Origin: a virus | Lineage: Duplodnaviria; Heunggongvirae; Uroviricota; Caudoviricetes | DNA: 34,178 nt | Virus record (IMG/VR): IMGVR_UViG_2526164599_000011 | Direction: 5' to 3' (one strand) | Shown here: piece by piece, positions 1 through 34,178 of the stretch | Layout of the letters: every line of letters starts with the position of its first letter | Position numbering within the stretch: the stretch's first letter is position 1 | Made by a program: the position numbers and the translations under genes | The notes under the pieces: generated by a model | Databases searched by the model: none | The model's input: only the letters and a program-made list of their open reading frames with translations | What the model was told of the DNA's origin: nothing

Positions 1-981
1 TTATAACGTCACTCCGCCTTTTAGTGGATTCAGAGCGACGGCGTTCTGCAGGTAGTCAGGCGCAAGGTGCGCATAGGTCATTGTCTGCTGAATGCTCGCA
101 TGCCCCAGAATCTGTTGCAGTGCAATTATGTTGCCCCCATTCATCATGAAATGGCTTGCGAATGTATGCCGCAGAATGTGGGTTGCCTGATTGGGAGGTA
201 TATCAGGTTTCACTCTGCGTAAAATCCCGCAAAACTTCTCATAATCTACCTTGAACAATTTGGCGCTGGCCTCCTCTTTAACTTTTTTCTCCAGTTCCTC
301 AGAAATCGGCACTGTTCGCTTTTTACCGTTTTTGGTTTTCAGGAAGGTAACCCTGCAACTTGTAATCTGTGCTGGTTTTAGTGTGGCAACTTCCGTCCAC
401 CTTCCTCCAGTGCTCAGACATAAAAGCGCGACAAGTAAGTCATCACCAGTCAAAACATTTAGCAGTTTTTCGATTTCTGCTTTTTCCAGGAACGTCATTT
501 CAGGGTTAGCCTCCGTCAGTGGCGGCAGTCCGTGAATTGGGTGTTGCCCGGAAAATTCATCCAATTGAATTAATTTTGTGAACATGCCGGATAATCGGTA
601 CATGTCGCGGTTTATCGTTGCAGCACTGATGCCATCACGTAGTCGCATGGAGCGATAATCCATCAAAGCCCTTTTGTTCATCCGACTCACTGGTATATCA
701 CCTATGCCGCTGATGGTTTTGAGCAGATGATTAAACTCTTTTGTCCCATGCTCGTGGTTTTGCCCGTGGTATTTCCACCAGATGTCGAGCAATTCTGTCA
801 AAGTTCGGCGGTCTGCTCGCTGGCCTCCCCATTCTTTCTGACTGGCATTGGCGATTGTGTATCGCTCAAATGCTAGTGCTTCAGCTTTTCTTTCAAATTT
901 CCTGCGGATGCGTTTTCCGTTGCGACCGCGAGGTCTAATGTCCACTTCATAGCGACCATCATCGAGCTTCTTAATTGCCAT
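1..981 (-). CDS. int: Phage integrase, tyrosine recombinase (P2 Int-like); alternative upstream ATG at 1011
   Basis: 336-aa minus-strand ORF whose stop codon is at window bases 1-3. C-terminal region has tyrosine-recombinase-like motifs (ILRHTFASHF, LGHASIQQTMTYAHL). ATG at 981 is preceded by GGAGGG; ATG at 1011 has no obvious SD. Lies directly downstream of repressor C as in P2. Confidence 0.9.
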   Translation of the reverse strand: MAIKKLDDGRYEVDIRPRGRNGKRIRRKFERKAEALAFERYTIANASQKEWGGQRADRRTLTELLDIWWKYHGQNHEHGTKEFNHLLKTISGIGDIPVSRMNKRALMDYRSMRLRDGISAATINRDMYRLSGMFTKLIQLDEFSGQHPIHGLPPLTEANPEMTFLEKAEIEKLLNVLTGDDLLVALLCLSTGGRWTEVATLKPAQITSCRVTFLKTKNGKKRTVPISEELEKKVKEEASAKLFKVDYEKFCGILRRVKPDIPPNQATHILRHTFASHFMMNGGNIIALQQILGHASIQQTMTYAHLAPDYLQNAVALNPLKGGVTL

Positions 982-1050
982 AAGAAAGCCCTCCGGCGCT
1001 GTATTCACCATCTTGGTGGCAAATGGTGAAAATGTAATTTTTATATAGAG

Positions 1051-1344
1051 TTAGCCAATCCTTTTCGCGGAGTGGTTGGATTCTGTTGACTCTGGCCCAC
1101 TGTGCGCGAGAGCCGGTGCGATTTGTCCCGCTTCCGGCGCTGTTTTATCTGTCATGAGCCATAGTGTGTATTTTTGGAACTGAGGTGCATTGGTGACCTG
1201 CAACACAACTTGGATGCCAGGGTCTTGATGGCCTCCTTCGTAATTCTTTAGCGTTCCTAACGCTATGCCGCTGATTTCACTGAATTTTGCTTGAGTTAGC
1301 CCTTCCGATTGTCTTATTGCTCTTAATTTCTGTGCGATATTCAT
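1051..1344 (-). CDS. C: Immunity repressor, P2 C-like HTH protein
   Basis: 97-aa ORF (P2 C is about 99 aa) with HTH-like N-terminus (LTQAKFSEISGIALGTLKNYEGG) and the segment PQFQKYTLWLMTDKTAPEAGQIAPALAH that I recall as typical of P2-family C repressors. Sits immediately upstream of int and divergent from cox. Confidence 0.8.
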   Translation of the reverse strand: MNIAQKLRAIRQSEGLTQAKFSEISGIALGTLKNYEGGHQDPGIQVVLQVTNAPQFQKYTLWLMTDKTAPEAGQIAPALAHSGPESTESNHSAKRIG

Positions 1345-1480
1345 TTGACATAGTCCTGACTTAATGACTATATTCCCCGAAAAAGGTCATTAATCCAGAA
1401 CCTTTTCGGGCGTGAGTCCAGCGCCGCTTAAACGGTTCCAAGCGGTTTTTAAGGGGCTGGATCCTATGAGGGTAACATAG
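1345..1480. promoter_or_regulatory. Lysis-lysogeny switch region between C and cox (expected early and repressor promoters and operators)
   Basis: Position only: 136-bp intergenic spacer between divergent C and cox, which in P2-like phages holds the Pe/Pc promoters and C operators. No specific promoter hexamers or operator repeats identified by eye. Confidence 0.4.
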
Positions 1481-1753
1481 ATGGAAGTTAATGATTATGT
1501 GATTAAGTACCCGCTTGATGCGGTACATGCGGAAAAGTTTGCAGATTTATTGGGTAAACCAAAAACCGCAGTTACAGAAATGATAAAGGCTAACAAGCTA
1601 CCGGTTATCGAGCTTCGAGATCCAAATAAGCCGAAGGCCCGCGCCGGTGAGAAATGGGTTTTCATTCCAGAGTTTAATCGCGCTGTACGTGAGGCGTTTT
1701 ATAACCGACCGGTTGAACAGCGTGATGCATGGCTTTTGTGGATGGGGTTGTGA
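1481..1753 (+). CDS. cox: Cox-like excisionase / transcriptional regulator
   Basis: 90-aa ORF (P2 Cox 91 aa), first gene of the rightward early operon; contains KLPVIELRDPNK...GEKWVFIP and C-terminal DAWLLWMGL resembling P2 Cox. Confidence 0.8.
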   Translation: MEVNDYVIKYPLDAVHAEKFADLLGKPKTAVTEMIKANKLPVIELRDPNKPKARAGEKWVFIPEFNRAVREAFYNRPVEQRDAWLLWMGL

Positions 1754-3509: not shown

Positions 3510-5775
3510 AGCCTCCGGGCGTTTTGTCCCTCCGTCAGCATTTACCGCAGGCACCGGTAAGGCGTTTACCGGTGCTTATGCATGGAACGCGCCACGCGAG
3601 GCTGTCGGGCGCGAAAGACCTCTTACACGTGACGAGATGCGTCAGGTGCAAGGTGTTTTATCCACGATTAACCGCCTGCCTTACTTTTTGCGCTCGCTGT
3701 TTACTTCACGCTATGACTACATCCGGCGCAATAAAAGCCCGGTGCACGGGTTTTATTTCCTCACATCCACTTTTCAGCGTCGTTTATGGCCGCGCATTGA
3801 GCGTGTGAATCAGCGCCATGAAATGAACACCGACGCGTCGTTGCTGTTTCTGGCAGAGCGTGACCACTATGCGCGCCTGCCGGGAATGAATGACAAGGAG
3901 CTGAAAAAGTTTGCCGCCCGTATCTCATCGCAGCTTTTCATGATGTATGAGGAACTCTGCGATGCATGGGTTGATGCGCATGGTGAAAAAGAATCGCTGT
4001 TTACGGATGAGGCGCAGGCTCACCTGTATGGTCATGTTGCTGGCGCTGCACGTGCTTTCAATATTTCCCCGCTCTACTGGAAAAAATACCGTAAAGGACA
4101 GATGACCACGAGGCAGGCATATTCTGCCATTGCCCGTCTGTTTAACGATGAGTGGTGGACTCATCAGCTTAAAGGCCAGCGTATGCGCTGGCATGAAGCG
4201 TTACTGATAGCTGTCGGGGAGGTCAATAAAGACCGTTCTCCTTATGCCAGTAAACACGCCATTCGTGATGTGCGTGCGCGCCGCCAGGCAAATCTGGAAT
4301 TTCTTAAATCGTGTGACCTTGAAAACAGGGAAACCGGCGAGCGCATCGACCTTATCAGTAAGGTGATGGGCAGTATTTCTAATCCTGAAATTCGCCGGAT
4401 GGAGCTGATGAACACCATTGCCGGTATTGAGCGTTACGCCGCCGCAGAGGGCGATGTGGGGATGTTTATCACGCTGACCGCACCGTCAAAGTATCACCCG
4501 ACACGTCAGGTCGGAAAAGGCGAAAGTAAAACCGTGCAGCTTAATCACGGCTGGAACGATGAGGCATTTAATCCAAAGGATGCGCAGCGTTATCTCTGCC
4601 GTATCTGGAGCCTGATGCGCACGGCATTCAAGGATAATGATTTACAGGTTTACGGTTTGCGAGTCGTCGAGCCACACCACGACGGAACGCCGCACTGGCA
4701 TATGATGCTTTTTTGTAATCCACGCCAGCGTAACCAGATTATTGAAATCATGCGTCGCTACGCGCTCAAAGAGGATGGCGACGAAAGAGGAGCTGCGCGA
4801 AACCGTTTTCAGGCAAAACACCTTAACCGGGGCGGTGCTGCGGGATATATCGCGAAATACATTTCAAAAAACATCGACGGCTATGCACTGGATGGTCAGC
4901 TCGATAACGATACCGGCAGGCCGCTGAAAGACACTGCCGCGGCTGTTACCGCATGGGCGTCAACGTGGCGCATTCCGCAATTTAAAACGGTTGGCCTGCC
5001 GACAATGGGGGCTTACCGTGAACTACGCAAATTGCCTCGCGGCGTCAGCATTGCTGATGAGTTTGACGAGCGCGTCGAGGCTGCACGCGCCGCCGCAGAC
5101 AGTGGTGATTTTGCGTTGTATATCAGCGCGCAGGGTGGGGCAAATGTCCCGCGCGATTGTCAGACTGTCAGGGTCGCCCGTAGCCCGTCGGATGACGTTA
5201 ACGAGTACGAGGAAGAAGTCGAGAGAGTGGTCGGCATTTACGCGCCGCATCTCGGCGCGCGTCATATTCATATCACCAGAACGACGGACTGGCGCATTGT
5301 GCCGAAAGTTCCGGTCGTTGAGCCTTTGACTTTAAAAAGCGGCATCGCCGCGCCTCGGAGTCCTGTCAATAACTGTGGAAAGCTCACCGGTGGTGATACT
5401 TCGTTACCGGCTCCCACACCTTCTGAGCACGCCGCAGCAGTGCTTAATCTGGTTGATGACGGTGTTATCGAATGGAATGACCCGGAGGTCGTGAGGGCGC
5501 TCAAAAGCGCATTAAAACACGGCCTGAGAAGACCAAACCGTCAGCAAAGAAACGGAAACCCGTTAAAACCACATGAAATTGCACCATCGGCCAGACTGAG
5601 CCGGTCGGAGCGATTGCAAATCACCCGTATCCGCGTTGACCTTGCTCAGAATGGAATCTTGCCCCAGCGATGGGAGCTTGAGGCGCTGGCGCGTGGGGCA
5701 ACCGTAAATTATGACGGGAAAAAATTCACGTATCCGGTTGCTGATGAGTGGTCGGTTTTTTCAATTAAACAATAA
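3499..5775 (+). CDS. A: Replication initiation protein A (rolling-circle HUH-type endonuclease, P2 gpA-like)
   Basis: 758 codons from ATG 3499 (ORF extends upstream to 3457); P2 gpA is about 761 aa. HUH-like motif PHWHMMLF and the tyrosine-bearing segment GYIAKYISKNIDGY are present. Last gene of the early operon. Confidence 0.85.
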   Translation: MAVKASGRFVPPSAFTAGTGKAFTGAYAWNAPREAVGRERPLTRDEMRQVQGVLSTINRLPYFLRSLFTSRYDYIRRNKSPVHGFYFLTSTFQRRLWPRIERVNQRHEMNTDASLLFLAERDHYARLPGMNDKELKKFAARISSQLFMMYEELCDAWVDAHGEKESLFTDEAQAHLYGHVAGAARAFNISPLYWKKYRKGQMTTRQAYSAIARLFNDEWWTHQLKGQRMRWHEALLIAVGEVNKDRSPYASKHAIRDVRARRQANLEFLKSCDLENRETGERIDLISKVMGSISNPEIRRMELMNTIAGIERYAAAEGDVGMFITLTAPSKYHPTRQVGKGESKTVQLNHGWNDEAFNPKDAQRYLCRIWSLMRTAFKDNDLQVYGLRVVEPHHDGTPHWHMMLFCNPRQRNQIIEIMRRYALKEDGDERGAARNRFQAKHLNRGGAAGYIAKYISKNIDGYALDGQLDNDTGRPLKDTAAAVTAWASTWRIPQFKTVGLPTMGAYRELRKLPRGVSIADEFDERVEAARAAADSGDFALYISAQGGANVPRDCQTVRVARSPSDDVNEYEEEVERVVGIYAPHLGARHIHITRTTDWRIVPKVPVVEPLTLKSGIAAPRSPVNNCGKLTGGDTSLPAPTPSEHAAAVLNLVDDGVIEWNDPEVVRALKSALKHGLRRPNRQQRNGNPLKPHEIAPSARLSRSERLQITRIRVDLAQNGILPQRWELEALARGATVNYDGKKFTYPVADEWSVFSIKQ

Positions 5776-5919
5776 TGGCTACTGCCGCAGCGTTGTGGGA
5801 ATGCTATAGTGTTTGTAGAATTATCCCATGAAAAACAACTAATTAATCTGTTTTTCATATTGAACTAATTTTTTATGGCCACAGTTGTTAAAAAGTGAGA
5901 ACATAATCTTGTTCAAAAC

Positions 5920-5960
5920 CTGCTTCTATATACGGAGGCTTTCGCTATAATACGCGGTCG
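5920..5960 (+). promoter_or_regulatory. Putative sigma70-type promoter for the methyltransferase gene
   Basis: TATAAT at 5946-5951 inside an AT-rich tract, about 25 nt upstream of ATG 5977; -35 element is weak (CTTCTA around 5923-5928). Strong SD AGGAGG at 5966-5971. Confidence 0.25.
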
Positions 5961-5976
5961 GTTTTAGGAGGGGATA

Positions 5977-6921
5977 ATGCCAACAGTAGTTTCACTTTTT
6001 TCTGGATGCGGTGGTTCCGATGCGGGGGTTCTGAGAGCTGGCTTTGATGTGCTTATGGCCAACGATATCTTGCCGTATGCGCGCGATGTTTATATTGCCA
6101 ATCATCCAGAAACTGATTACATTTTAGGCAATATTGCTGATGTAACTACTTTTCCTAAATCTGATTTGCTAGTAGGTTGTTATCCATGTCAGGGATTCAG
6201 CCAGGGTGGTGCGCGTAAGGCCGATCGAAAAATTAATACTCTTTATTTAGAGTTTGCTAGAGCTTTAAACAATATAAAGCCTAAAGCTTTTATAGTAGAA
6301 AACGTGTCTGGTATGGTTAGAAAAAACTTCGAGCATTTGTTATCTGACCAGATCAGGGTTTTTACTGAAGCAGGTTATGCTGTTTCAGCAAAAGTTTTGA
6401 ATGCGGCTGAATATGGAGTAGCGCAGGAAAGAAAAAGAATATTTATCGTAGGAATCCGTAATGATTTCAAAGTTAAGTACGAGTTCCCTCAGCCAACTCA
6501 TGGGCCGGCGACTGGCGTCAACTATGTTACTATTAAAGATGCTATAGGGCATTTACCTGAATGGCCAGAAGGTGAATTTTATGATATGGGGTTCCATTGG
6601 TATTATATGTCTCGCAATCGTCGCCAAGATTGGGATCAAATTTCAAAGACAATAGTTGCTAATGCAAGGCATATGCCGTTGCATCCTATCAGTCCTTCGA
6701 TGGAGAAAGTAAGAACTGATGAATGGAGGTTTGTTGAGGATCGGAGAGCTCGCAGATTCAGTTTTCGAGAGGCAGCACTATTACAAGGGTTTGAGGATCT
6801 AGTGTTTCCCGAAACAAATGCTGCAAGTCTTGGCATGAAATACACGGTGGTTGGTAATGCAGTGCCTCCGCCGCTTTTTGAAGCTGTAACGAAGGCATTG
6901 CCAATAGAATTATGGGATTGA
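5977..6921 (+). CDS. DNA (cytosine-5)-methyltransferase
   Basis: 314 aa with canonical C5-MTase motifs: FSGCGG (motif I, AdoMet binding), GCYPCQGFSQGG (motif IV, catalytic PCQ), ENV (motif VI), QERKR (motif VIII), GNAVPPPL near the C-terminus (motif X). Strong SD; gene is visibly more AT-rich than the phage backbone. Confidence 0.9.
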   Translation: MPTVVSLFSGCGGSDAGVLRAGFDVLMANDILPYARDVYIANHPETDYILGNIADVTTFPKSDLLVGCYPCQGFSQGGARKADRKINTLYLEFARALNNIKPKAFIVENVSGMVRKNFEHLLSDQIRVFTEAGYAVSAKVLNAAEYGVAQERKRIFIVGIRNDFKVKYEFPQPTHGPATGVNYVTIKDAIGHLPEWPEGEFYDMGFHWYYMSRNRRQDWDQISKTIVANARHMPLHPISPSMEKVRTDEWRFVEDRRARRFSFREAALLQGFEDLVFPETNAASLGMKYTVVGNAVPPPLFEAVTKALPIELWD

Positions 6922-6928
6922 TAAGCTA

Positions 6929-7921
6929 TTAAGGCTCTGGATTTAATGTATAAAGTTCTTCTTCAAATTCGCGAAACCAATCAGAGGTAGTTATCGCTTC
7001 CCATTGGTTTGCCTTATCAAGTAGATATATGATCCTCAACCTATCTAATAATAATACACCAGCGGTTGCATGTGTGCTTACCCATTCGCCATTTGCTTCC
7101 CGATAGAAAACAGGCGTGAACATTGTTGATGGATGCTGGAAAGCAATTTGGAAATAGGTGGTCAGTTTTAACACGTTAGCCTCTAATGTTTTGCTTGGCC
7201 ACCCTGTTTCTTGTGCACCACATTGACCAAGAATTCCATAGTTGCTAGTTTGACCATCAGGAAATTCCACTGTAGCAATTAGGTCAAACCCAGCATCACC
7301 AGATGTGGGAGCTTTATTTATTTCCCTTGTGTTTAAACTACAAACTCCAAGATCTTTTCCTAAAATTTGTAGAGCATTCCGAAGATTCGTTCCATAATAT
7401 TTTTGCCTATCATCGGAGTTAGCATCAAAAATTCTTACGGTGCCATGTGCAGGTAAGAGAGAAATCATTGCAACTTTACATACTCTGGCAAAGCTCTTTG
7501 CCCAACGTTGTGCTGCTCCTCTAATCGACTTAAAGGATCTAAGTCTAGAGCAACAAAGGAGAAAAACATATATTCTTTGTTGTTGGTTTAGATTTTCTTT
7601 AATAATTATCTCATCACCTGAAATTATAAATGGATATATCTTTCCAAGAGCGCTTTCTCTATATTCGAGTTGTGTCCAAACATCTTCTAGTTGCTCTTCA
7701 AAACGATCATTTCTCTCTGCGTCTCCATCAATTTCTTCTTCAAAATTACATTCTTCATCAATTTCTTCAACACTTGTCATGCCGAATTTTCTTACTGAAT
7801 CTAAATCATTTTTATGCAGAGAGTTACGTCCGATATAATTAATCACCGTGAGTAACTCGGCTAAATCTGCAAACAAATGGGGAGAGTTGGGATGCATAAC
7901 TCCTACTTCAAAAGTCATCAT
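6929..7921 (-). CDS. Hypothetical protein, family not recognised; convergent with the MTase, downstream partner of the ParB-like gene
   Basis: About 330 aa; GTG at 7924 then ATGs at 7921 and 7918; start overlaps the stop of the upstream ParB-like gene (TGA 7908-7910). Acidic N-terminal region (EEIDEECNFEEEIDGDAERNDRFEEQLED). Stop TAA at 6929-6931 is 7 nt from the MTase stop. AT-rich. Confidence 0.7.
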   Translation of the reverse strand: MMTFEVGVMHPNSPHLFADLAELLTVINYIGRNSLHKNDLDSVRKFGMTSVEEIDEECNFEEEIDGDAERNDRFEEQLEDVWTQLEYRESALGKIYPFIISGDEIIIKENLNQQQRIYVFLLCCSRLRSFKSIRGAAQRWAKSFARVCKVAMISLLPAHGTVRIFDANSDDRQKYYGTNLRNALQILGKDLGVCSLNTREINKAPTSGDAGFDLIATVEFPDGQTSNYGILGQCGAQETGWPSKTLEANVLKLTTYFQIAFQHPSTMFTPVFYREANGEWVSTHATAGVLLLDRLRIIYLLDKANQWEAITTSDWFREFEEELYTLNPEP

Positions 7922-9029
7922 CACCTCTGCTATTTTTCTCTGCTATTTCAGAACCTATAAGCTTAATATGTTTATTGATTCTTCGTGCTACTTCATGAGC
8001 CTGTCTATCATACTCTACTGTGGCAACCATGCCTGCTGCATCTATCAAAGCCGCTTCAACTTGATAAAGTAACTGGAGAAAGTCCTTAGTAATATCAGAT
8101 GTCAATTGGTAGGCCACTGCGAGTGGAGCCCCCATTCGGAATTGCTCCAATGCCTTAGGGCTACTAACAACAGCAGCTAATTCTCTTAAATTACGTGACT
8201 CTCCAACACGAGTTTTTTTATCCTCACCTTTTTTATATAACCACTCAGTTAGCTCTTTTATTTCTTTGTTCTTTAAGCTATTAGAGTTGATAATAGGATG
8301 ACTTGGTATTGTGTCTCCATCGTCTTCGATTGAAACTCCGACAAATTGGCCTAACCGCTCATCAGCAAGTGCTGTTGATAATACTGAAAATTTAATCGTT
8401 TCTTCATCTAGTTTTTCAATACCATAAAAATCATTTTCTTTAATGATTTCATACACCGCTAAAGCGTCTAGGTTACGCTTGATATGATCCCTACGACTGC
8501 CAATAGCTCTGGCAACCTCATAGTAGCGTAGCATCGGATCCTGATTTGCATTGGTATAATCAAAAAGCTGTTTAATATATCGAGCTTTTGATAAGGGCTC
8601 CCATTGTTTGACACCAGTAATATGTCTGAAACCAAGATACGGAAGAATCTCTTCTCTTGTTTGGCGCTCAATGACAGGAACACGATCGACTGTATGTTTT
8701 GCATTTGATGCAATTTCTCGTAGTCGAGCACTTGGATTTTCACATAGTGTCGGATCGCGTAATAATTTAACTGCGGATAGGCGACGGTTTCCTTCAACTA
8801 CAATGTACTTCCCCGGCGCGACACTGTCAGGAATGACAATCAATGGTTCTCCAGGGAAAAAACCATTTTCCGCAATAGCACTCATTAGATCTTCGATAGA
8901 TGTTGAGGTTGCTATGTAGTTAATCATTCCCAATTGGTCACGAGACACGCCTTCAGGAAGTCTTGGGTTTTCTGTGTCAAGTTCCAAATCATCTAGCGGA
9001 ACATAAAGTATTTCTGAATCAGCAATCAT
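7908..9029 (-). CDS. ParB/Srx-like N-terminal domain protein (ParB-type nuclease/NTPase fold), function unknown
   Basis: 373 aa; N-terminal ILYVPLDDLELDTENPR...GEPLIVIP...YIVVEGNRRLSAV matches the ParB box I / GxxRxxA box II pattern. SD GGAG 7-10 nt upstream of ATG at 9029. AT-rich; first gene of a two-gene leftward operon. Confidence 0.75.
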   Translation of the reverse strand: MIADSEILYVPLDDLELDTENPRLPEGVSRDQLGMINYIATSTSIEDLMSAIAENGFFPGEPLIVIPDSVAPGKYIVVEGNRRLSAVKLLRDPTLCENPSARLREIASNAKHTVDRVPVIERQTREEILPYLGFRHITGVKQWEPLSKARYIKQLFDYTNANQDPMLRYYEVARAIGSRRDHIKRNLDALAVYEIIKENDFYGIEKLDEETIKFSVLSTALADERLGQFVGVSIEDDGDTIPSHPIINSNSLKNKEIKELTEWLYKKGEDKKTRVGESRNLRELAAVVSSPKALEQFRMGAPLAVAYQLTSDITKDFLQLLYQVEAALIDAAGMVATVEYDRQAHEVARRINKHIKLIGSEIAEKNSRGDDDF

Positions 9030-9255
9030 CTGGATCTCCGTTGAACATGTCTACGAGAAGGAGCACAAAGTTATTTCATAACATGCAATATACTCATTCT
9101 GTAGCCATAAATGAATTATTCATGATGTAAGATTCGCGTTGATGTGCGTGAATTCGCAAGTAATTTTATAGCAAGGTTTGATTGGGTATCGTTAGCACTG
9201 GCGCGGTTTCAACGTATTCATGCACCTGCATTAAAACCGACCCATGAAGCGGGCG

Positions 9256-9274
9256 GGCGAGGCGGGGAAAGCAC
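9256..9274. other. Probable cos site (19-nt cohesive end of P2-type phages)
   Basis: GGCGAGGCGGGGAAAGCAC at 9256-9274 matches the P2 cohesive-end sequence as I recall it, and lies about 170 bp from the end of portal gene Q where P2 cos sits. Sequence identity is from memory and not verified. Confidence 0.6.
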
Positions 9275-9443
9275 TGCGCGCTGGCGGTGGTGCTGATTTT
9301 ATTTTTTCAGCGTCTGAGCGCGTCGTGATGGCGTTTAGATTGTTAGCCGGGGCGTTGGTGTGTCTGCGGGCTGTTTTGTGCGGTGGTGAGCGTGTGAGAG
9401 CGTGATGGCGGGTTGTAAAAAAGCCGCCCGCAGGCGGCGATGT

Positions 9444-10478
9444 TCAGCCGTTGTCAGTGTCCAGTGAGTAGTTTTTAAAGCGGATGACCTCCTGACCGAG
9501 CCAGCCGTTTATCTCGCGGATCCTGTCCTGTAACGGGATAAGTTCATTGCGGACAAAGACCTTTGCCACTTTCTCAATATCACCCAGCGACCCGACGTTC
9601 TCCGGCTTGCCACCCATCAACTGAAAGGGGATGCGGTGCGCGTCCAGCAGGTCAGCGGCGCTGGCTTTTTTGATATTAAAAAAATCGTCCTTCGTCGCCA
9701 CTTCACTGAGGGGGATAATTTTAATGCCGTCGGCTTTCCCCTGTGGGGCATAGAGAAACAGGTTTTTAAAGTTGTTGCGGCCTTTCGACTTGACCATGTT
9801 TTCGCGAAGCATTTCGATATCGTTGCGGTCCTGCACGGCATCGGTGACGTACATGATGTATCCGGCATGTGCGCCGTTTTCGTAATACTTGCGGCGGAAC
9901 AGCGTGGCCGACTCATTCAGCCAGGCAGAGTTAAGGGCGCTGAGATATTCCGGCAGACCGTACAGCTCCTGATTAATATCCGGCTCCAGCAGGTGAAACA
10001 CGGAGCCGGGCGCGAAAGGTGTCGGCTCGTTGAAAGACGGCACCCACCAGTAAACATCCTCCTCCACGCCACGACGGGTATATTTGGCCGGTGAGGTTTC
10101 CAGTCTGATGACCTTACCGGTGGTGCTGTAACGCTTTTCCAGAAACGCATTACCGAACACCAGAAAATCCAGCACAAAACGGCTGAAATCCTGCTGGGAA
10201 AGCCACGGGTGCGGGATAAACGTTGAAGCCAGAATATTACGTTTGACGTAAATCGGTGAGCTGTGATGCACGGCAGCACGCAGACTTTTTGCCAGGCCGG
10301 TAAAGCTGACCGGTGGCTCATACCATCTGCCGTTACTGATGCACTCGACGTAATCCAGAATGTCACGCCGGTCGAGTACCGGTACCGGCTCACCAAAGGT
10401 GAATGCCTCCATTTTCGGGGCGCTGGCGGTCATTGTTTTTGCCGCAGGTTGCGGTGTTTTCCCTTTTTTCTTGCTCAT
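9444..10478 (-). CDS. Q: Portal protein (P2 gpQ-like)
   Basis: 344 aa, identical in length to P2 gpQ; leftward, adjacent to cos, followed by the terminase large subunit with start/stop overlap at 10478-10480. Confidence 0.9.
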   Translation of the reverse strand: MSKKKGKTPQPAAKTMTASAPKMEAFTFGEPVPVLDRRDILDYVECISNGRWYEPPVSFTGLAKSLRAAVHHSSPIYVKRNILASTFIPHPWLSQQDFSRFVLDFLVFGNAFLEKRYSTTGKVIRLETSPAKYTRRGVEEDVYWWVPSFNEPTPFAPGSVFHLLEPDINQELYGLPEYLSALNSAWLNESATLFRRKYYENGAHAGYIMYVTDAVQDRNDIEMLRENMVKSKGRNNFKNLFLYAPQGKADGIKIIPLSEVATKDDFFNIKKASAADLLDAHRIPFQLMGGKPENVGSLGDIEKVAKVFVRNELIPLQDRIREINGWLGQEVIRFKNYSLDTDNG

Positions 10479-19674: not shown

Positions 19675-20583
19675 ATGCCGATTATCGACCTGAACCAGCT
19701 ACCCGCACCGGATGTGGTCGAGGAGCTGGACTTTGAAACCATTCTTGCCGAACGCAAGGCGACACTGATTTCCCTTTACCCGGAAGACCAGCAGGAGGCG
19801 GTTGCCCGTACCCTGACGCTGGAATCCGAGCCTCTCGTCAAACTGCTGGAGGAAAATGCTTATCGTGAGCTTATCTGGCGTCAGCGTGTGAATGAGGCCG
19901 CACGGGCGGTAATGCTGGCCTGTGCCGCCGGTAATGACCTTGATGTGATTGGTGCCAATTACAACACCACACGCCTGATTATCACCCCGGCAGATGATTC
20001 GACCATCCCGCCGACACCGGCAGTGATGGAATCTGACACCGATTATCGGCTGCGTATTCAGCAGGCGTTTGAAGGTTTAAGCGTCGCCGGGTCGGTGGGT
20101 GCCTATCAGTATCATGGCCGCAGTGCCGACGGGCGTGTCGCGGATATCTCTGTCACCAGTCCGTCTCCGGCCTGCGTCACTATCTCTGTGCTGTCACGTG
20201 AAAATAACGGTGTCGCATCCGAAGACCTGCTGGCGGTGGTGCGTAACGCCCTTAATGGCGAGGACGTCAGGCCGGTGGCCGACCGCGTGACCGTGCAGTC
20301 TGCCGCCATCGTTGAATACCAGATAAACGCCACGCTTTACCTTTACCCTGGTCCCGAAAGCGAACCCATACGCGCTGCCGCCGTGAAAAAACTGGAAGCG
20401 TATATCACGGCACAGCACCGGCTGGGGCGCGATATCCGACTGTCTGCCATTTATGCCGCTTTGCATGTGGAAGGCGTGCAGCGTGTCGAACTGGCTGCAC
20501 CGCTGGCCGATATCGTGCTTAACAGCACGCAGGCGTCTTTCTGTACCGAATACCGCGTCGTGACCGGAGGCTCGGATGAGTGA
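19675..20583 (+). CDS. J: Baseplate assembly protein J
   Basis: 302 aa (P2 gpJ 302 aa). Confidence 0.85.
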   Translation: MPIIDLNQLPAPDVVEELDFETILAERKATLISLYPEDQQEAVARTLTLESEPLVKLLEENAYRELIWRQRVNEAARAVMLACAAGNDLDVIGANYNTTRLIITPADDSTIPPTPAVMESDTDYRLRIQQAFEGLSVAGSVGAYQYHGRSADGRVADISVTSPSPACVTISVLSRENNGVASEDLLAVVRNALNGEDVRPVADRVTVQSAAIVEYQINATLYLYPGPESEPIRAAAVKKLEAYITAQHRLGRDIRLSAIYAALHVEGVQRVELAAPLADIVLNSTQASFCTEYRVVTGGSDE

Positions 20584-21106
20584 TTCGCGACTGCTGCCGA
20601 CCGGCTCATCACCGCTTGAAGTCGCCGCCGCAAAAGCCTGTGCGGAAATTGAAAAAACGCCGGTCAGGATTCGTGAGCTGTGGAACCCGGACACCTGCCC
20701 GGCAAATTTGCTGCCGTGGCTGGCGTGGGCGTTTTCGGTCGACAGATGGGATGAAAAGTGGCCGGAAGCGACAAAACGCGCCGTTATCCGCGATGCCTAT
20801 TTCATCCACTGTCATAAAGGCACTATCGGCGCAATCCGGCGTGTGGTGGAGCCGCTCGGCTATCTCATCAACGTGACGGAGTGGTGGGAAAACAGTGACC
20901 CGCCCGGCACCTTCCGGCTCGATATTGGTGTACTGGAAAGCGGTATCACAGAGGCAATGTATCAGGAAATGGAACGGCTGATTGCTGATGCCAAACCTGC
21001 AAGCCGTCACCTTATTGGTCTGAACATTACCCGGGACATTCCCGGCTACCTGTTCGCCGGTGGTGTGGCTTATGACGGCGATGTAATTACGGTTTACCCC
21101 GGATAA
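20576..21106 (+). CDS. I: Baseplate/tail protein I
   Basis: 176 aa (P2 gpI 176 aa); start overlaps the J stop. Confidence 0.85.
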   Translation: MSDSRLLPTGSSPLEVAAAKACAEIEKTPVRIRELWNPDTCPANLLPWLAWAFSVDRWDEKWPEATKRAVIRDAYFIHCHKGTIGAIRRVVEPLGYLINVTEWWENSDPPGTFRLDIGVLESGITEAMYQEMERLIADAKPASRHLIGLNITRDIPGYLFAGGVAYDGDVITVYPG

Positions 21107-22110
21107 GTGAGGAATAATGAGCACAAAATTCAGAACCGTTATCACCACTGCCGGTGCAGCAAAGCTGGCAGCGGCAACCGCGCCGGGAGGGCGGAAGGTC
21201 AACATTACCACGATGGCCGTCGGGGATGGCGGTGGTAAATTGCCTGTCCCGGATGCCGGACAGACCGGGCTTATCCACGAAGTCTGGCGACATGCGCTGA
21301 ACAAAATCAGCCAGGACAAACGAAACAGTAATTATATTATCGCAGAGCTGGTTATTCCGCCGGAGGTGGGCGGTTTCTGGATGCGTGAGCTTGGCCTGTA
21401 CGATGATGCGGGAACGTTAATTGCCGTGGCGAACATGGCCGAAAGTTATAAGCCAGCTCTTGCCGAAGGCTCAGGGCGTTCGCAGACCTGCCGCATGGTC
21501 ATCATCGTCAGCAGTGTGGCCTCAGTGGAGCTGACCATTGACACCACAACGGTGATGGCGACGCAGGATTACGTTGATGACAAAATTGCAGAGCACGAAC
21601 AGTCACGACGTCACCCGGACGCCTCGCTGACCGCAAAAGGTTTTACTCAGTTAAGCAGTGCGACCAACAGCATGTCTGAAATGCTTGCCGCAACGCCAAA
21701 AGCCGTTAAGACGGTAATGGATGAAACGAACAAGAAAGCGCCATTAAACAGCCCTGTACTGACCGGAACGCCAACGACGCCAACTGCGCGACAGGGAACG
21801 AATAATACTCAGATCGCAAACACGGCTTTCGTTATGGCCGCGATTGCCGCCCTTGTAGACTCGTCGCCTGACGCACTGAATACGCTGAACGAGCTGGCGG
21901 CGGCGCTGGGCAATGACCCGAATTTTGCTACCACCATGACTAATGCGCTTGCGGGTAAGCAACCGAAAGATGCTACCCTGACGGCGCTGGCGGGGCTTGC
22001 TACTGCGGCAGACAGGTTTCCGTATTTTACGGGGAATGATGTTGCCAGCCTGGCAACCCTGACAAAAGTCGGGCGGGATATTCTGGCTAAATCGACCGTT
22101 GCCGCCGTTA

Positions 22111-22115
22111 TCGAA
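22111..22115. repeat. Target-site duplication (TCGAA), left copy, flanking IS2
   Basis: TCGAA immediately 5' of the IS2 left terminus; identical 5-mer immediately 3' of the right terminus; IS2 makes 5-bp duplications. Confidence 0.8.
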
Positions 22116-22206
22116 TAGACTGGCCCCCTGAATCTCCAGACAACCAATATCACTTAAATAAGTGATAGTCTTAATACTAGTTTTTAGACTAGTCATTGGA
22201 GAGCAG

Positions 22207-22572
22207 ATGATTGATGTCTTAGGACCGGAGAAACGCAGACGGCGTACTACACAGGAAAAGATCGCTATTGTTCAGCAGAGTTTTGAACCGGGAATGACGG
22301 TCTCCCTTGTTGCCCGGCAACACGGTGTGGCAGCCAGCCAGTTATTTCTCTGGCGCAAGCAATACCAGGAGGGAAGTCTTACTGCTGTGGCCGCAGGAGA
22401 GCAGGTCGTTCCTGCCTCTGAACTTGCTGCTGCCATGAAGCAGATTAAAGAACTCCAGCGCCTGCTCGGCAAAAAAACGATGGAAAATGAACTCCTTAAA
22501 GAAGCCGTTGAATACGGGCGTGCAAAAAAGTGGATAGCGCACGCGCCCTTATTGCCCGGGGATGGGGAGTAA
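22207..22572 (+). CDS. insC: IS2 transposase OrfA (InsC, HTH DNA-binding component)
   Basis: 121 aa from ATG 22207; sequence [52 protein letters not shown] is recognisable as IS2 InsC. Confidence 0.9.
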
Positions 22573-23435
22573 GCTTAGTCAGCCGTTGTCTCCGGGTGTC
22601 GCGTGCGCAGTTGCACGTAATTCTCAGACGAACCGATGACTGGAAAGATGGTCGCCGCAGCCGTCACTCAGATGATACGGATGTGCTTCTCCGTATACAC
22701 CATGTTATCGGAGAGCTGCCCACGTATGGTTATCGTCGGGTATGGGCGCTGCTTCGCAGACAGGCCGAACTTGATGGTATGCCTGCGATCAATGCCAAAC
22801 GTGTTTACCGGATCATGCGCCAGAATGCGCTGTTGCTTGAGCGAAAAACCGCTGTACCGCCATCGAAACGGGCACATACTGGCAAAGTGGCCGTGAAAGA
22901 AAGCAATCAACGATGGTGCTCTGACGGGTTCGAGTTCCGCTGTGATAACGGAGAAAAACTGCGAGTCACGTTCGCGCTGGACTGCTGTGACCGTGAGGCA
23001 CTGCACTGGGCAGTCACTACGGGCGGCTTCGACAGTGAAACAGTACAGGACGTAATGCTGGGAGCGGTGGAACGCCGCTTCGGCAACGAGCTTCCGGCGT
23101 CTCCAGTAGAGTGGCTGACGGATAATGGTTCATGCTACCGGGCTAATGAAACACGGCAGTTTGCCCGGATGTTGGGGCTTGAACCGAAGAACACGGCGGT
23201 GCGGAGTCCGGAGAGTAACGGCATAGCAGAGAGCTTCGTGAAAACGATAAAGCGTGACTACATCAGTATCATGCCTAAACCAGACGGGTTAACGGCAGCA
23301 AAGAACCTTGCAGAGGCGTTCGAGCATTATAACGAATGGCATCCGCATAGTGCACTGGGTTATCGCTCGCCACGGGAATATCTGCGGCAGCAGGCCAGTA
23401 ATGGGTTAAGTGATAACAGGTGTCTGGAAATATAG
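22530..23435 (+). CDS. insD: IS2 transposase OrfB (InsD, DDE catalytic domain), normally expressed as an OrfAB fusion by -1 frameshift
   Basis: 301-aa ORF with DDE-type integrase-core sequence (WCSDGFEF...DNGSCY...ESNGIAESF); A AAA AAG slippery heptamer at 22524-22530 in the overlap with insC. Confidence 0.9.
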
Positions 23436-23446
23436 GGGCAAATCCA

Positions 23447-23451
23447 TCGAA
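23447..23451. repeat. Target-site duplication (TCGAA), right copy, flanking IS2
   Basis: Identical to the 5-mer at 22111-22115, directly abutting the IS2 right terminus. Confidence 0.8.
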
Positions 23452-24475
23452 TATCTCGGTTTACAGGAAACGGTAAACCGAGCCGGGAACGCCGTGCAAA
23501 AAAATGGCGATACCTTGTCCGGTGGACTTACTTTTGAAAACGACTCAATCCTTGCCTGGATTCGAAATACTGACTGGGCGAAGATTGGATTTAAAAATGA
23601 TGCCGATGGTGACACTGATTCATTCATGTGGTTTGAAACGGGGGATAACGGCAATGAATATTTCAAATGGAGAAGCCGCCAGAGTACTACAACAAAAGAC
23701 CTGATGAATCTTAAATGGGATGCTTTGTATGTTCTTGTCAATGCCATTGTAAATGGCGAAGTCATATCAAAATCAGCAAACGGCCTACGTATTGCTTATG
23801 GTAATTACGGATTCTTTATTCGTAATGATGGTTCAAATACATACTTCATGTTGACAAACTCCGGTGACAACATGGGGACTTATAACGGATTAAGGCCATT
23901 ATGGATTAATAACGCTACTGGCGCTGTTTCGATGGGGCGTGGCCTTAATGTTTCAGGGGAGACGCTTTCAGACCGTTTTGCTATTAACAGCAGTAATGGT
24001 ATGTGGATTCAGATGCGCGATAACAACGCTATCTTTGGGAAAAATATAGTTAACACTGATAGCGCTCAGGCGTTGCTTCGCCAGAATCACGCTGACCGCA
24101 AGTTCATGATAGGTGGACTGGGGAACAAGCAATTTGGCATCTACATGATTAATAACTCAAGGACAGCCAATGGCACCGATGGTCAGGCGTACATGGATAA
24201 TAACGGTAACTGGCTTTGTGGCTCGCAAGTTATTCCCGGCAACTATGGCAATTTTGATTCCAGATATGTGAAAGATGTTCGACTTGGTTCACAGCAATAT
24301 TATGGAGTTAACAACTGGCAAACATGGAATTTCCAGTGCCCGTCAGGTCATGTATTGTCTGGTATTAATGTTCAGGATACAGGGTCCAACTCTGCCGATA
24401 ATATAGCGGGCGTTTATTACAGACCCGTTCAAAAGTATATAAATGGCACCTGGTATAATGTAGCGAGCGTTTAAT

Positions 24476-25003
24476 ATGATGCACTTAAAGAACATAAAAG
24501 CGGGTAACGCTAAAACACTGGAACAGTATGAGTTAACAAAGAAACACGGAGTTATCTGGCTTTACTCTGAGGACGGAAAAAACTGGTATGAGGAAGTGAA
24601 GAACTTTCAGCCAGACACAATAAAGATTGTTTACGATGAAAATAATATTATTGTCGCTATCACCAGAGATGCTTCAACGCTTAATCCTGAAGGTTTTAGC
24701 GTTGTTGAGGTTCCTGATATTACCTCCAACCGACGTGCTGACGACTCAGGTAAATGGATGTTTAAGGATGGTGCTGTGGTTAAACGGATTTATACGGCAG
24801 ATGAACAGCAACAACAGGCAGAATCACAAAAGGCAGCGTTACTTTCCGAAGCGGAAAGCGTTATTCAGCCACTGGAACGCGCTGTCAGGCTGAATATGGC
24901 GACGGATGAGGAACGTGCACGACTGGAGTCATGGGAACGCTACAGCGTTCTGGTCAGCCGTGTGGATCCTGCAAATCCTGAATGGCCGGAAATGCCGCAA
25001 TAA
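24476..25003 (+). CDS. G: Tail fibre assembly chaperone (P2 gpG-like)
   Basis: 175 aa (P2 gpG 175 aa); immediately downstream of H. Confidence 0.85.
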
Positions 25004-25218: not shown

Positions 25219-26118
25219 ATGAGTGGTATTCGTATAACTCAGGCTATTGATAACAATCAGATTTTAGTCAATGTAAATACTTTTAATTATAGTGTTAATC
25301 CCTATCCACTCAAATGTCCTGACCCAAATTGCTCTGCTCATTTGGTGTATGTCAAAAGCCATATTCGTCGGAGTTTTAATAAAACCTTGCATATCCCCGC
25401 CTTCTTTAGACTGGAAAAAAATTTCACGCATGACAAATTATGTCAGTATGGAACTTCAGGATTGAATACAATTTATGCAAGTGATTCCAGTCATGATATC
25501 AGCCGTGCGCTTGCCACAGGTAATAATATATTCCGTATACATATACTCGATGAAGATGATATCTCTAAATTAAGCAGAAAAGCTGCAGCTATGCAGGCAA
25601 ATCCACCTTCTGATACTACAGACCGCGTTTATGTCAAGAGAGGTCGGAAAGCCCCCTATGTGAAGAACATGGATAGCTTACGGGAGATCTATGAATATGG
25701 AAAAGCTCACCCCAACAAGAGAAACAGCATAAAAATTGTTACTGGAACAAGTACTGTAACGTGGTCTGATTTTTTCTATGAAACAACGCAGTTAGAACGA
25801 TTGTCAACTTACCTCCAGAAAGTAAAAATAGCTCAGGTTGCTGTAATTATGAAAGTGCATGTGGCGAGAATCCCTATGGCGAAATTTAATTATCGACACT
25901 TCATTGAAGGTTCGCCAATGAGGATAAAAGGGGGCTTTAATATATATCCTACGATTCAATTAGGAAATGTTACTCCAAAATTATTTCCGTTGAGTAGCAT
26001 TGTCATGGTACTCGGTAAATTTACTATTCCAACAAATAGAAAAATGATAATGGATCCAACATTTGAGCGTGAAGTCAGAACCATAGTTTCTAGTGAAGAG
26101 CAAGTGCTAATTCTTTGA
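25219..26118 (+). CDS. Hypothetical 299-aa protein, family not recognised; AT-rich cargo gene at the P2 Z/fun position
   Basis: ATG at 25219 with strong SD GGAGG; 299 aa; much more AT-rich than the flanking tail genes, with AT-rich non-coding DNA on both sides (25004-25218 and 26119-26437). Contains CPDPNCSAH near the N-terminus; no family assigned by eye. Confidence 0.7.
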   Translation: MSGIRITQAIDNNQILVNVNTFNYSVNPYPLKCPDPNCSAHLVYVKSHIRRSFNKTLHIPAFFRLEKNFTHDKLCQYGTSGLNTIYASDSSHDISRALATGNNIFRIHILDEDDISKLSRKAAAMQANPPSDTTDRVYVKRGRKAPYVKNMDSLREIYEYGKAHPNKRNSIKIVTGTSTVTWSDFFYETTQLERLSTYLQKVKIAQVAVIMKVHVARIPMAKFNYRHFIEGSPMRIKGGFNIYPTIQLGNVTPKLFPLSSIVMVLGKFTIPTNRKMIMDPTFEREVRTIVSSEEQVLIL

Positions 26119-33275: not shown

Positions 33276-34178
33276 ATGAATCAATCTTATGGACGGCTGG
33301 TCAGTCGGGCGGCGATTGCTGCGACGGCGATGGCTTCGTTGCTATTGCTGATTAAAATTTTTGCATGGTGGTATACCGGGTCGGTGAGTATTCTCGCCGC
33401 GCTGGTGGATTCGCTGGTGGATATCGGCGCGTCGTTGACGAATTTATTGGTGGTGCGATATTCCCTGCAACCTGCCGACGATAATCACTCGTTTGGTCAC
33501 GGTAAAGCTGAGTCCCTCGCGGCGCTGGCGCAAAGTATGTTTATCTCCGGTTCGGCACTATTCCTGTTTTTGACGGGTATTCAACATCTGATATCTCCAA
33601 CACCGATGACAGATCCAGGCGTCGGGGTTATCGTGACAATTGTGGCGCTAATTTGTACGATTATCCTTGTCTCGTTTCAGCGTTGGGTGGTGCGGCGGAC
33701 GCAAAGCCAGGCGGTGCGGGCTGATATGCTACATTACCAGTCTGATGTTATGATGAACGGCGCAATTCTGCTGGCGCTGGGGTTGTCCTGGTACGGCTGG
33801 CATCGCGCCGATGCTCTGTTTGCATTGGGAATCGGCATCTATATTTTATATAGCGCGTTACGCATGGGATATGAGGCGGTACAGTCATTACTGGATCGCG
33901 CATTGCCTGATGAGGAACGGCAAGAAATTATTGATATCGTGACTTCCTGGCCGGGTGTTAGCGGCGCTCACGATCTTCGCACGCGGCAGTCAGGGCCGAC
34001 CCGCTTTATTCAGATTCATTTGGAAATGGAAGACTCTCTGCCTTTGGTTCAGGCACATATGGTGGCGGATCAGGTAGAGCAGGCTATTTTACGGCGTTTT
34101 CCGGGATCGGATGTAATTATCCATCAGGACCCCTGTTCCGTCGTACCCAGGGAGGGTAAACGGTCTATGCTTTCATAA
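33276..34178 (+). CDS. fieF: Cation-efflux pump FieF (YiiP), cation diffusion facilitator family; host gene
   Basis: 300 aa from ATG 33276 with SD GGGAG; sequence [54 protein letters not shown]... is recognisable as enterobacterial FieF; GC and codon usage differ from the adjacent cargo regions. Confidence 0.9.

Follow-up and report, generated by a model that had tools for sequence, protein, structure and literature searches.

Gene H of the temperate phage P2 is, by established P2 genetics, an essential tail gene. In the P2 record it belongs to the operon V-W-J-I-H-G, and its product (gpH; NC_001895) is a tail fibre protein of 669 aa. A second temperate phage, P1, has long been linked to insertion of IS2 into a restricted region, since Sengstag, Shepherd and Arber reportedly described in 1983 a P1 'hot target for IS2 insertion' along with IS2 insertion mutants of this phage. 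The choice of targets by IS2 is reportedly non-random and falls near curved DNA, a context in which the P1 'hot target' is also cited (PMC3299598). Both themes meet in the enterotoxigenic (ETEC) Escherichia coli strains TW10590 and TW10573, whose P2-like prophages each carry a complete IS2, bordered by a 5-bp target-site duplication (TSD), in the middle of H.

Here we describe a comparable locus in a 34,178-nt stretch of DNA, hereafter the window (IMG/VR record IMGVR_UViG_2526164599_000011), which holds a P2-like prophage of E. coli DEC13D. The DEC13D insertion differs from those of TW10590 and TW10573 in position, orientation and TSD. The explanation that we favor, and hold to be very probable as a whole, is that a recent insertion of IS2 in H has rendered an otherwise complete P2-like prophage defective. 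The event as such is ordinary, since a prophage turned defective by an IS element in one of its structural genes is a textbook case, and the DEC13D sequence has been public since 2012.

Anatomy of the interrupted H gene

The two parts of H lie between I and G, which is the position of gpH in P2, and the region is organized as follows.

1–33040, + strand: P2-like (Peduovirus-type) prophage, from the int stop codon to ogr, just upstream of fieF (33277–34178)
20576–21106: I, baseplate gene, directly before H
21117–22115, + strand: H 5' fragment, codons 1–333, tail-collar domain and shaft repeat, baseplate-proximal
22111–22115: left copy of the TSD, TCGAA
22116–23446, + strand: complete IS2, 1331 bp, transposase direction the same as H
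22116–22157, + strand: IS2 IRL, 42 bp, terminal sequence TAGACTGGCCCCCTGAATCTCC...
22207–22572, + strand: IS2 orfA (InsC-type, 121 aa), 121/121 identical to K-12 insC1, Pfam HTH_Tnp_1
22524–22530, + strand: A AAA AAG (A6G) programmed −1 frameshift motif, orfA-orfB, sequence GCAAAAAAGTGG
22530–23435, + strand: IS2 orfB (301 aa, DDE/rve catalytic part), full length, Pfam HTH_21/rve/rve_3
23406–23446, + strand: IS2 IRR, 41 bp, ending ...GGGGCAAATCCA
23447–23451: right copy of the TSD, TCGAA
23452–24474, + strand: H 3' part, codons 334–673 plus stop, Gp34-type trimerisation domain and P1 S/Mu S-like distal (receptor-binding) region
24476–25003, + strand: G, tail-fibre assembly chaperone, 175 aa, intact, 94% identical to P2 gpG, PF02413

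The original prediction that a complete IS2 splits H was borne out by two exact termini (the element begins TAGACTGGCCCCC... and finishes ...GGGGCAAATCCA), by the length of 1331 bp, by intact ORFs and by an end-to-end alignment with K-12 IS2A (insC1/insD1; IS3 family), which revealed 95.7% nucleotide identity over 1331/1331 nt with 0 gaps and 57 differences. The ~1.33-kb element shows imperfect terminal repeats (TAGACTGG... / ...CAAATCCA), for which the published definition gives 42 and 41 bp (PMC3299598), and two overlapping ORFs with the A6G frameshift that supply the HTH and DDE parts. The 5-bp TSD is present on both sides, and its target is single-copy in relatives with the empty site. The window copy and IS2A thus share length, termini, OrfA, the 301-aa OrfB, A6G and the 5-bp duplication, and differ in the 57 nt and in a handful of OrfB substitutions, as scored by alignment to K-12 insD1. 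An identical copy in TW10590 is annotated by PGAP as a 1229-nt 'programmed frameshift' transposase. With its ORFs and ends intact, the window IS2 is apparently functional, and the identical copy elsewhere in TW10590 fits recent activity.

The insertion point lies between codons 333 and 334 of H. The TAG at 22116–22118 that had been predicted to end the H frame is indeed made up of IS2 bases 1–3, and H resumes after the element in another frame, also as proposed, with coding from 23452, immediately after the second TCGAA at 23447 (21117 mod 3 = 0 versus 23452 mod 3 = 1). The 3' part is left with no start or promoter of its own. No continuous ORF of ~670 codons exists at this locus, which instead holds 333 codons followed, in the other frame, by a remainder of 340 codons; such an ORF is regained only by in silico deletion of 22116–23451. 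Joining 21117–22115 to 23452–24474 yields 2022 nt and 673 codons with the sole stop at the end, in agreement with the ~670 codons anticipated for excision of IS2 plus one TCGAA and with the size of P2 gpH, whereas keeping both TCGAA copies in the join results in a frameshift and an early stop. The H 5' fragment has been deposited as EHX58435.1 (333 aa, E. coli DEC13D), and Pfam assigns PF12571 to its aa 1–151 (E 1.7e-60) and PF03406 to aa 170–210. PF21446 spans aa 375–485 of the repaired H; the cut site is upstream of this domain, within a stretch identical to P2 gpH.

Alignment to an intact P2-like H, suggested earlier as a check, revealed the repaired protein to be identical over 673/673 residues to a natural protein (P0122). 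At least six other assemblies carry this prophage at the ogr-fieF-pfkA locus too, and in them it encodes P0122. Six relatives are colinear with the IS-less window at 99.2–99.8%, and in each of them the uninterrupted target (...GCCGTTATCGAATATCTCGG...) contains TCGAA once; in PSUO2, the 2022-nt H gene runs without interruption at 99.9%. The same alignment found P2 gpH near-identical over the N-terminal ~430 aa, including the cut residues, and the likeness returns in the last 12 or so residues and in a conserved GNFDSRYVKDVRLG motif. This N-terminal portion of 430 aa is strongly conserved among H alleles. In contrast to P2 gpH, the repaired window H is devoid of one 44-aa shaft repeat and its residues ~435–612 are unrelated to P2. 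The distal ~240 aa belong to the P1 S/Mu S type, and from H nt ~1000 onward the gene is 94–95% identical at the nucleotide level to tail-fibre gene S of P1, D6 and D108 (Mu-like). The closest full-length phage match of H is 'Peduovirus P2' NC_070904 (98.8%). The restored H is therefore not the P2 allele.

Age, independence and placement of IS2 insertions in H

Intact IS2 ORFs and an intact TSD had been read as signs of a relatively recent insertion, and comparison with TW10590 points the same way. Over 21 kb, the TW10590 prophage and the window are separated by 3 SNPs, the TW10590 H, once repaired, is identical to the repaired H of the window (2022/2022), and so is its IS2 (1331/1331), the window variant being 95.6% identical to that of TW10573 and 95.5% to that of L026, an IMG/VR contig with a further H insertion. 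A survey of IS2 copy number and of this insertion in related strains, also recommended at the outset, revealed ~20 IS2 copies in related genomes and an IS2 insertion within the neighboring cargo gene in GN03139/GN03551, and recovered the H-IS2 junction of the window in 0/5,426 complete genomes. Since the repaired H shows no substitution with respect to TW10590, the IS2 copies are identical and the junction is unshared, the insertion is evidently recent and strain-specific.

In TW10590, IS2 sits inverted at H nt 1193, about 195 bp downstream of the window site, with GGGGA as TSD; this type of H::IS2 allele is probably also present in DEC13A/3350-73. In TW10573, where both the H allele and the IS2 variant are different, the element is inverted at H nt ~1293 and the TSD is AGCCC. 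An inversion or local rearrangement linking the window to TW10590 was rejected, as the intervening 194-bp segment keeps the same orientation and each IS2 has a perfect TSD of its own. Judged from these sequences, the insertions of the window, TW10590 and TW10573 are independent events and do not derive from common ancestry. The lesion is also a clean single-event marker by which DEC13D can be told apart from DEC13A/TW10590 and from those sister strains whose H is intact.

Such repeated insertion in mid-H could reflect a target preference of IS2, either regional (low-GC or curved DNA, the shaft-distal junction) and/or dictated in minor part by CGTTATCG-NN next to IRL, a reading that we find credible while placing it somewhat below even chances. 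On this view, host selection is not required. The four independent insertions known to us, in the window, TW10590, contig L026 and TW10573, map to H nt 999, 1193, ~1285 and ~1293 and differ in TSDs, orientations, IS2 variants and H alleles. The probability that four sites placed uniformly in 2022 nt span 294 nt or less is P = 0.011, but most of the H cases came from H-anchored queries, and P rises to 0.038 with a 1300-nt detection window. Local GC content falls from ~0.58 to ~0.36 over the insertion zone; the window site itself, however, is not low in GC (0.53 over ±50 nt). Among 102 distinct IMG/VR IS2 sites, we observed a weak A/T bias, C being scarce 3 bp outside the TSD. At H, GCCGTTATC is found 3 bp outside IRL in the window and TW10590 alike, and CGTTATCG recurs in the same register at two fimbrial-gene insertions 1 bp apart and on one metagenome contig. 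On the other hand, the motif is missing from TW10573 and L026, and GTTATC occurs in 0/102 unbiased IS2 sites. A general IS2 consensus was also considered as the source of the common GCCGTTATC and rejected, the same IMG/VR sites showing only the weak A/T tendency and none of them this hexamer.

Further scans for the motif beside IRL returned 0 GTTATC versus 0 GATAAC in the unbiased IMG/VR set, 0 matches to GWTAWC in GTDB representative genomes and four matches to GWTAWC in metagenomes (1 GTTATC, 0 GATAAC, 2 GATATC and 1 GTTAAC). A 56-aa IS2-antisense-tail query yielded no meaningful H heads among the best 120 of 710 clusters, where ORF calls were of ≤97 aa and H fusions are invisible. Collectively, this evidence, moderate in extent, suggests a regional preference of IS2 for the middle of H.

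More speculatively, the ~300-nt junction between the H shaft and the distal module may be a genuine, partly sequence-directed IS2 hot target and hence a recurrent route to fibreless, cargo-bearing P2-like residents, a proposal to which we assign a rather low probability. It draws on the placement of CGTTATCG two bases outside IRL and on its occurrence as an inverted pair about 195 bp apart in the window H allele. If true, E. coli with active IS2 (ETEC DEC13, TW10590, TW10573) would predictably make their P2-like prophages fibreless, one route of prophage decay would be target-driven and predictable, and H would be a natural setting in which to study how IS2 chooses its targets, a matter that is poorly understood. 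An analogy to the classical hot target of IS2 in the tail-fibre operon of P1 is likewise conceivable, if doubtful. GenBank V01534, which we take to be the P1 hot-target sequence of Sengstag et al. 1983, falls in P1 on the end of gene 16, on gene R and on the 5' part of tail-fibre gene S. The likeness would be a temperate phage in which inactivating IS2 insertions favor a limited region, one that is, here too, a tail-fibre operon. The link is a lead only. The portion of P1 S homologous to the window H lies elsewhere, at 35044–35869, and V01534 has no nucleotide similarity to the H insertion zone, tblastx returning only a fibre-repeat match elsewhere. A literature search on V01534 and AIHI00000000 gave nothing relevant; in PMC6906374 the match was to IS26 and not to IS2.

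Prophage context and predicted consequences of the insertion

A tblastn search with all P2 proteins uncovered the whole P2 gene set in P2 order, colinear with the phage. Q, P, O, N, M, L, X, Y, K, lysA-C, R, S, V, W, J, I, G, FI, FII, E, T, U, D, ogr, B and A are all full length, with 94–100% aa identity to P2; for int, C and cox the identities are 52, 45 and 46%, respectively, int and cox being full length and the C homologue 97 aa long. In the same search, orf30, fun(Z), orf91, tin and old were absent or replaced by other cargo. PGAP flags H as the sole pseudogene of the near-identical TW10590 prophage, and in the DEC13D prophage H is, as far as the sequence can tell, the only visible lesion.

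Cargo loci sit at both classical P2 accessory positions. The product of 5977–6921 is a C5 cytosine methyltransferase (PF00145) that matches PADLOC MTase models, and for the 373-aa product of 7908–9029 (− strand) the match to PD-Lambda-5_A (E 1.6e-28) was confined to the N-terminal ~190 positions of that model; neither the 331-aa nor the 299-aa product had a match in Pfam or PADLOC. Of these four proteins, earlier designated 'defence cargo', a single one thus showed a match, itself partial, to a defence family.

We propose that IS2, an IS3-family element that moves by copy-out/paste-in via a minicircle, entered H between codons 333 and 334 and thereby duplicated TCGAA. Translation of H would then end at the IS2-borne TAG, leaving a 333-aa stub with the baseplate-proximal collar and shaft, from which the trimerisation domain and the receptor-binding distal region would both be missing. 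The prophage would be single-hit defective and its particles fibreless and non-adsorbing, with repression, excision, replication, packaging and lysis still expected. We infer this loss of infectivity from P2 genetics and domain logic, and retention of the excision and lysis functions from the gene content described above; polarity of IS2 on G, which lies downstream of the element in the operon, is assumed. At least one plaque-essential function is lost, with H truncated at aa 333 of 673, and because H is essential in P2 and everything beyond aa 333 is cut off, the prophage is probably defective, as the original prediction soundly concluded. Prophage predictors should consequently not score the DEC13D P2-like prophage as intact or inducible, nor is release of plaque-forming P2-like phage or competent helping of a P4-type satellite to be expected from this strain.

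The further claim that the cargo is now fixed in the host as a domesticated element finds no support, as int and cox are full length and the prophage is presumably still able to excise and be lost. P2-type phages whose C repressor is short classically fail to respond to SOS induction. Mitomycin C induction, which had been put forward as a check, would therefore be a poor test for a prophage with a 97-aa C that is 45% identical to that of P2.

Rescue would have to come from H of a co-resident P2-like prophage, from recombination with an intact allele or from rare precise excision of IS2. The lysogen might remain infectious, with intact H (and G) provided in trans by another P2-like prophage of the same cell or H regained by recombination with such a copy, and the defect would be conditional; we judge this improbable. 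P2-type H 5' sequences occur in 1,727/5,426 complete genomes, at up to five places per genome, two places in TW10590 match the 5' half of H, and conservation of the N-terminal 430 aa makes docking of a heterologous fibre plausible and ensures that recombination substrates exist. However, going by P2 biology, P2-type late genes would be silent in the lysogen and need Ogr and replication, so that both prophages would have to be active together in one cell.

We also give little credence to the idea that loss of H was positively selected, yielding a domesticated prophage that leaves the host its immunity and cargo without producing infectious phage or serving as a satellite helper, and that this explains the ETEC knock-outs. 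Essentially one prophage does exist with two independent H::IS2 alleles and an intact one, a third insertion is found in TW10573, and the accessory positions are both occupied by cargo. Loss-of-function hits should nonetheless scatter over the whole gene and other late genes and not over 300 nt, and IS2 inside the neighboring cargo gene of GN03139/GN03551 is the opposite of cargo preservation. Intact int and cox also speak against selection, as does the mere abundance of IS2 at ~20 copies in these genomes, and IS moves may, as a matter of general knowledge, have built up in old collection strains during storage.

Defectiveness through a genuine IS2 insertion remains the preferred reading. That the element is instead a collapsed repeat misplaced by assembly, with the DEC13D H intact or interrupted as in TW10590, is extremely unlikely: the source is a 2012 draft assembly (WGS contig AIHI01000030.1), in which placement of a multi-copy IS within a contig relies on assembly, related genomes have ~20 IS2 copies, and the closest complete genome, TW10590, has IS2 elsewhere in H, but a TSD is not expected from misassembly and argues strongly for the placement, the IS2 termini are exact and the 5-bp TSD perfect around a target that is single-copy in the six empty-site relatives, the TW10590 target (GGGGATAACGGC) is unbroken in the window, which is thus not a mis-joined TW10590 structure, and the insertion is interior to a 156-kb contig identical to the window and recorded in three samples.

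Anatomy and authenticity of H::IS2

Direct reading of the sequence and scripted arithmetic bore out every coordinate and claim of the original prediction concerning the split of the P2-type tail-fibre gene H by IS2, which is laid out in the window as follows.

21117-22115, plus strand: H 5' fragment, 333 in-frame codons
21640-21650 (H aa ~177): position of a 44-aa fibre repeat of P2 gpH that is missing here
22111-22115 and 23447-23451: TCGAA copies before and after the element
22116-22118, plus strand: stop codon TAG, the first three bases of the inserted element
22116-23446, plus strand: IS2, 1331 bp, with termini TAGACTGGCCCCC... and ...GGGGCAAATCCA
22207-22572: OrfA, 121/121 identical to InsC1
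22524-22530: A AAA AAG frameshift motif
22530-23435: OrfB, full-length (301 aa), with a handful of substitutions
23452-24474, plus strand: H 3' part including the stop, in a frame different from that of the 5' fragment

Scripted joining of 21117-22115 to 23452-24474, i.e., removal of IS2 plus one TCGAA, yielded a 2022-nt ORF of 673 codons (repaired H), and retention of both TCGAA copies resulted in a frameshift and an early stop. The element aligns end-to-end and without gaps to IS2A of E. coli K-12 MG1655 (95.7% identity), and Pfam assigned HTH_Tnp_1 and HTH_21/rve/rve_3 to its called genes; every sequence-level hallmark of IS2 is present, including the 5-bp duplication.

The window matches contig AIHI01000030.1 (assembly GCA_000250375.2) exactly, and the truncated H product is deposited as EHX58435.1 of E. 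coli DEC13D. Repaired H is identical (673/673) to a natural uninterrupted protein, P0122, which is encoded by the same prophage in at least six other assemblies and lies there ahead of the same cargo gene (299 aa), ogr, fieF, and pfkA. Without its IS2, the window is colinear with these loci (99.2-99.8%), which carry the target ...GCCGTTATCGAATATCTCGG... uninterrupted, with one TCGAA; PSUO2 also has the 2022-nt gene without interruption (99.9%). An assembly artefact would not produce a target duplication at the exact IS ends, and we therefore regard the insertion as real. A screen of complete E. coli genomes (n = 5,426) did not yield its H-IS2 junction.

Age of the insertion and related alleles

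The closest complete genome, that of ETEC TW10590, harbors this prophage, too, and in the same location; its copy departs from that of the window by three substitutions in 21 kb and, in the spacer between ogr and fieF, by two homopolymer-tract differences. The latter, T tracts at window 33150 and 33187 in the attR region, are the sole TW10590 differences to the right of H and may be homopolymer sequencing errors of the 2012 draft. Repaired H of TW10590 and its IS2 copy are identical to those of the window (2022/2022 and 1331/1331, respectively), and neither H fragment in the window shows decay, which together indicate a very recent insertion, as originally proposed. Given the known behavior of IS elements in stored cultures, we conjecture that it perhaps occurred as late as culture-collection storage.

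Further IS2 insertions were identified in and near H (H nt, position in the repaired gene).

TW10590 (L001, NZ_CP035850.1), 21194-22524, inverted: IS2 at H nt 1193, duplication GGGGA; window equivalent 23641-23646
TW10573 (L142, NZ_CP127035.1), 5202-6532, inverted: IS2 at the equivalent of ~nt 1293, duplication AGCCC
IMG/VR locus L026 (IMGVR_UViG_2537561977_000012), 8660-9988, orientation of the gene: 1329-bp IS2 at the equivalent of ~nt 1285, duplication TTCTG
GN03139/GN03551 (L002, GN03139), 6062-7392: IS2 splitting the neighboring cargo gene; window equivalent 25509-25513

The window is uninterrupted at the TW10590 site, and the 397-aa partial H of DEC13A (3350-73) ends exactly at this insertion point. 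Since this site differs from that of the window, the clonal group has H both intact and as two H::IS2 alleles of independent origin. The third independent insertion, in TW10573, affects a different 681-aa H allele at the point where H-allele homology breaks, and involves an IS2 variant 95.6% identical to that of the window. The fourth, in L026, lies after '...NLKWDTLNIL' in an H/S-type fibre gene (84-87% identity). In another IMG/VR prophage (L018), IS2 resides in the cargo region directly downstream of G. H::IS2 in DEC13D is a fresh strain-specific case of a well-known type of event.

Consequences for the prophage and its cargo

With each of the P2 proteins as query, tblastn revealed a complete P2-type prophage whose gene order is that of P2. 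The genes Q, P, O, N, M, L, X, Y, K, lysA/B/C, R, S, V, W, J, I, G, FI, FII, E, T, U, D, ogr, B, and A are full-length with 94-100% amino acid identity, and other cargo replaces P2 orf30, fun(Z), orf91, tin, and old. Int, C, and Cox, encoded within window 1-1753, share just 52, 45, and 46% identity with those of P2, so that immunity and integration specificity are unlike those of P2. This immunity and integration module is a mosaic, inserted beside fieF.

In repaired H, aa 1-151 form a tail-collar domain, 170-210 a single fibre repeat, and 375-485 a trimerisation domain of the Gp34 type. Its first ~430 aa are almost identical to those of P2 gpH, save for the absent 44-aa repeat; a 717-aa H variant (93% identity) is common in the database. 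From ~aa 435 (listed span 22420-24474), H is instead of the P1 S/Mu S type, matching gene S of P1, D6, and D108 at 94-95% of nucleotides, which implies a receptor specificity other than that of P2. The cut falls between …AAVIE and YLGL…, within a stretch identical to P2 gpH, so that the stub retains the baseplate-proximal part and lacks those for trimerisation and receptor binding.

The core of the original prediction, a probably defective prophage with H split by IS2, is therefore supported, as H is cut off at aa 333 and no other essential gene is damaged; G, too, is intact but lies downstream of IS2 in the V-W-J-I-H-G operon. Judging from P2 biology, the lysogen would keep immunity, replication, packaging, and lysis, and presumably excision, since int and cox are intact. 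Released particles would be fibreless and unable to adsorb, and the prophage could not provide competent help to P4-type satellites. Rescue might come from H of a co-resident P2-like prophage, recombination with an intact H allele, or rare precise IS2 excision; in TW10590, two places match the H 5' half. With a P2-type immunity region, mitomycin C induction would probably tell little.

The further proposal that defence cargo is fixed as a domesticated element found no support, because excision functions are intact; in GN03139, the homologous cargo gene was destroyed by IS2 rather than preserved. The P2 tin/old position (window 5977-9029) holds three genes, listed here with the cargo gene next to G.

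5977-6921, plus strand: C5 cytosine methyltransferase
within 5977-9029, minus strand: 331-aa protein
within 5977-9029, minus strand: 373-aa protein, its N-terminal ~190 aa matching the defence-family model PD-Lambda-5_A (E 1.6e-28, partial)
25219-26118, between G and FI: 299-aa cargo gene

The 373-aa protein is annotated in TW10590 with a ParB N-terminal domain, and neither the 331-aa nor the 299-aa protein yielded Pfam or PADLOC matches. The tin/old-position set is a candidate defence locus, and evidence for defence cargo is thin.

Recurrent insertion in mid-H

The four IS2 sites in H, that of the window included, cluster within 294 nt of the 2022-nt gene (P ~0.011 under uniformity; 0.038 if the detection window is 1300 nt), in a zone coinciding with a GC drop from ~0.58 to ~0.36. 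IS2 targeting has been described as non-random and near curved DNA, with a P1 'hot target' cited for the element (PMC3299598). The 9-mer GCCGTTATC, present in H twice in opposite orientations with a spacing of 195 bp, lies 3 bp outside the left inverted repeat (IRL) in the window and TW10590 insertions (window 22104-22115 and 23644-23652). In the same register, CGTTATCG is found beside IRL at two insertions 1 bp apart in a fimbrial-usher gene of the unrelated strains 08-00022 and A8, as well as in a single metagenome contig (motif loci L128, L132, L138, and L114). There may thus be a minor sequence-specific IS2 target at GCCGTTATC/CGTTATCG. However, the motif is absent at the TW10573 and L026 insertions, and 102 distinct IMG/VR IS2 sites displayed a weak A/T preference and no GTTATC (0/102); unbiased motif scans returned too few matches for a decision. 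On this mixed evidence, a regional or sequence preference of IS2 is plausible yet unproven, and we lean slightly against it.

Recurrent mid-H targeting is a modest side lead. V01534 (locus MYOVP1) maps on the P1 record (L006, AF234173.1) to 1182-2771, i.e., P1 37099-38688, a stretch of the P1 tail-fibre operon made up of the gene 16 end, gene R, and the 5' portion of tail-fibre gene S. We take V01534 to be the 1983 P1 'hot target for IS2 insertion' sequence. This segment has zero nucleotide similarity to the H insertion zone; if the assignment is correct, the classical IS2 hot spot would likewise be located in a tail-fibre operon, at a sequence non-homologous to the zone in H.
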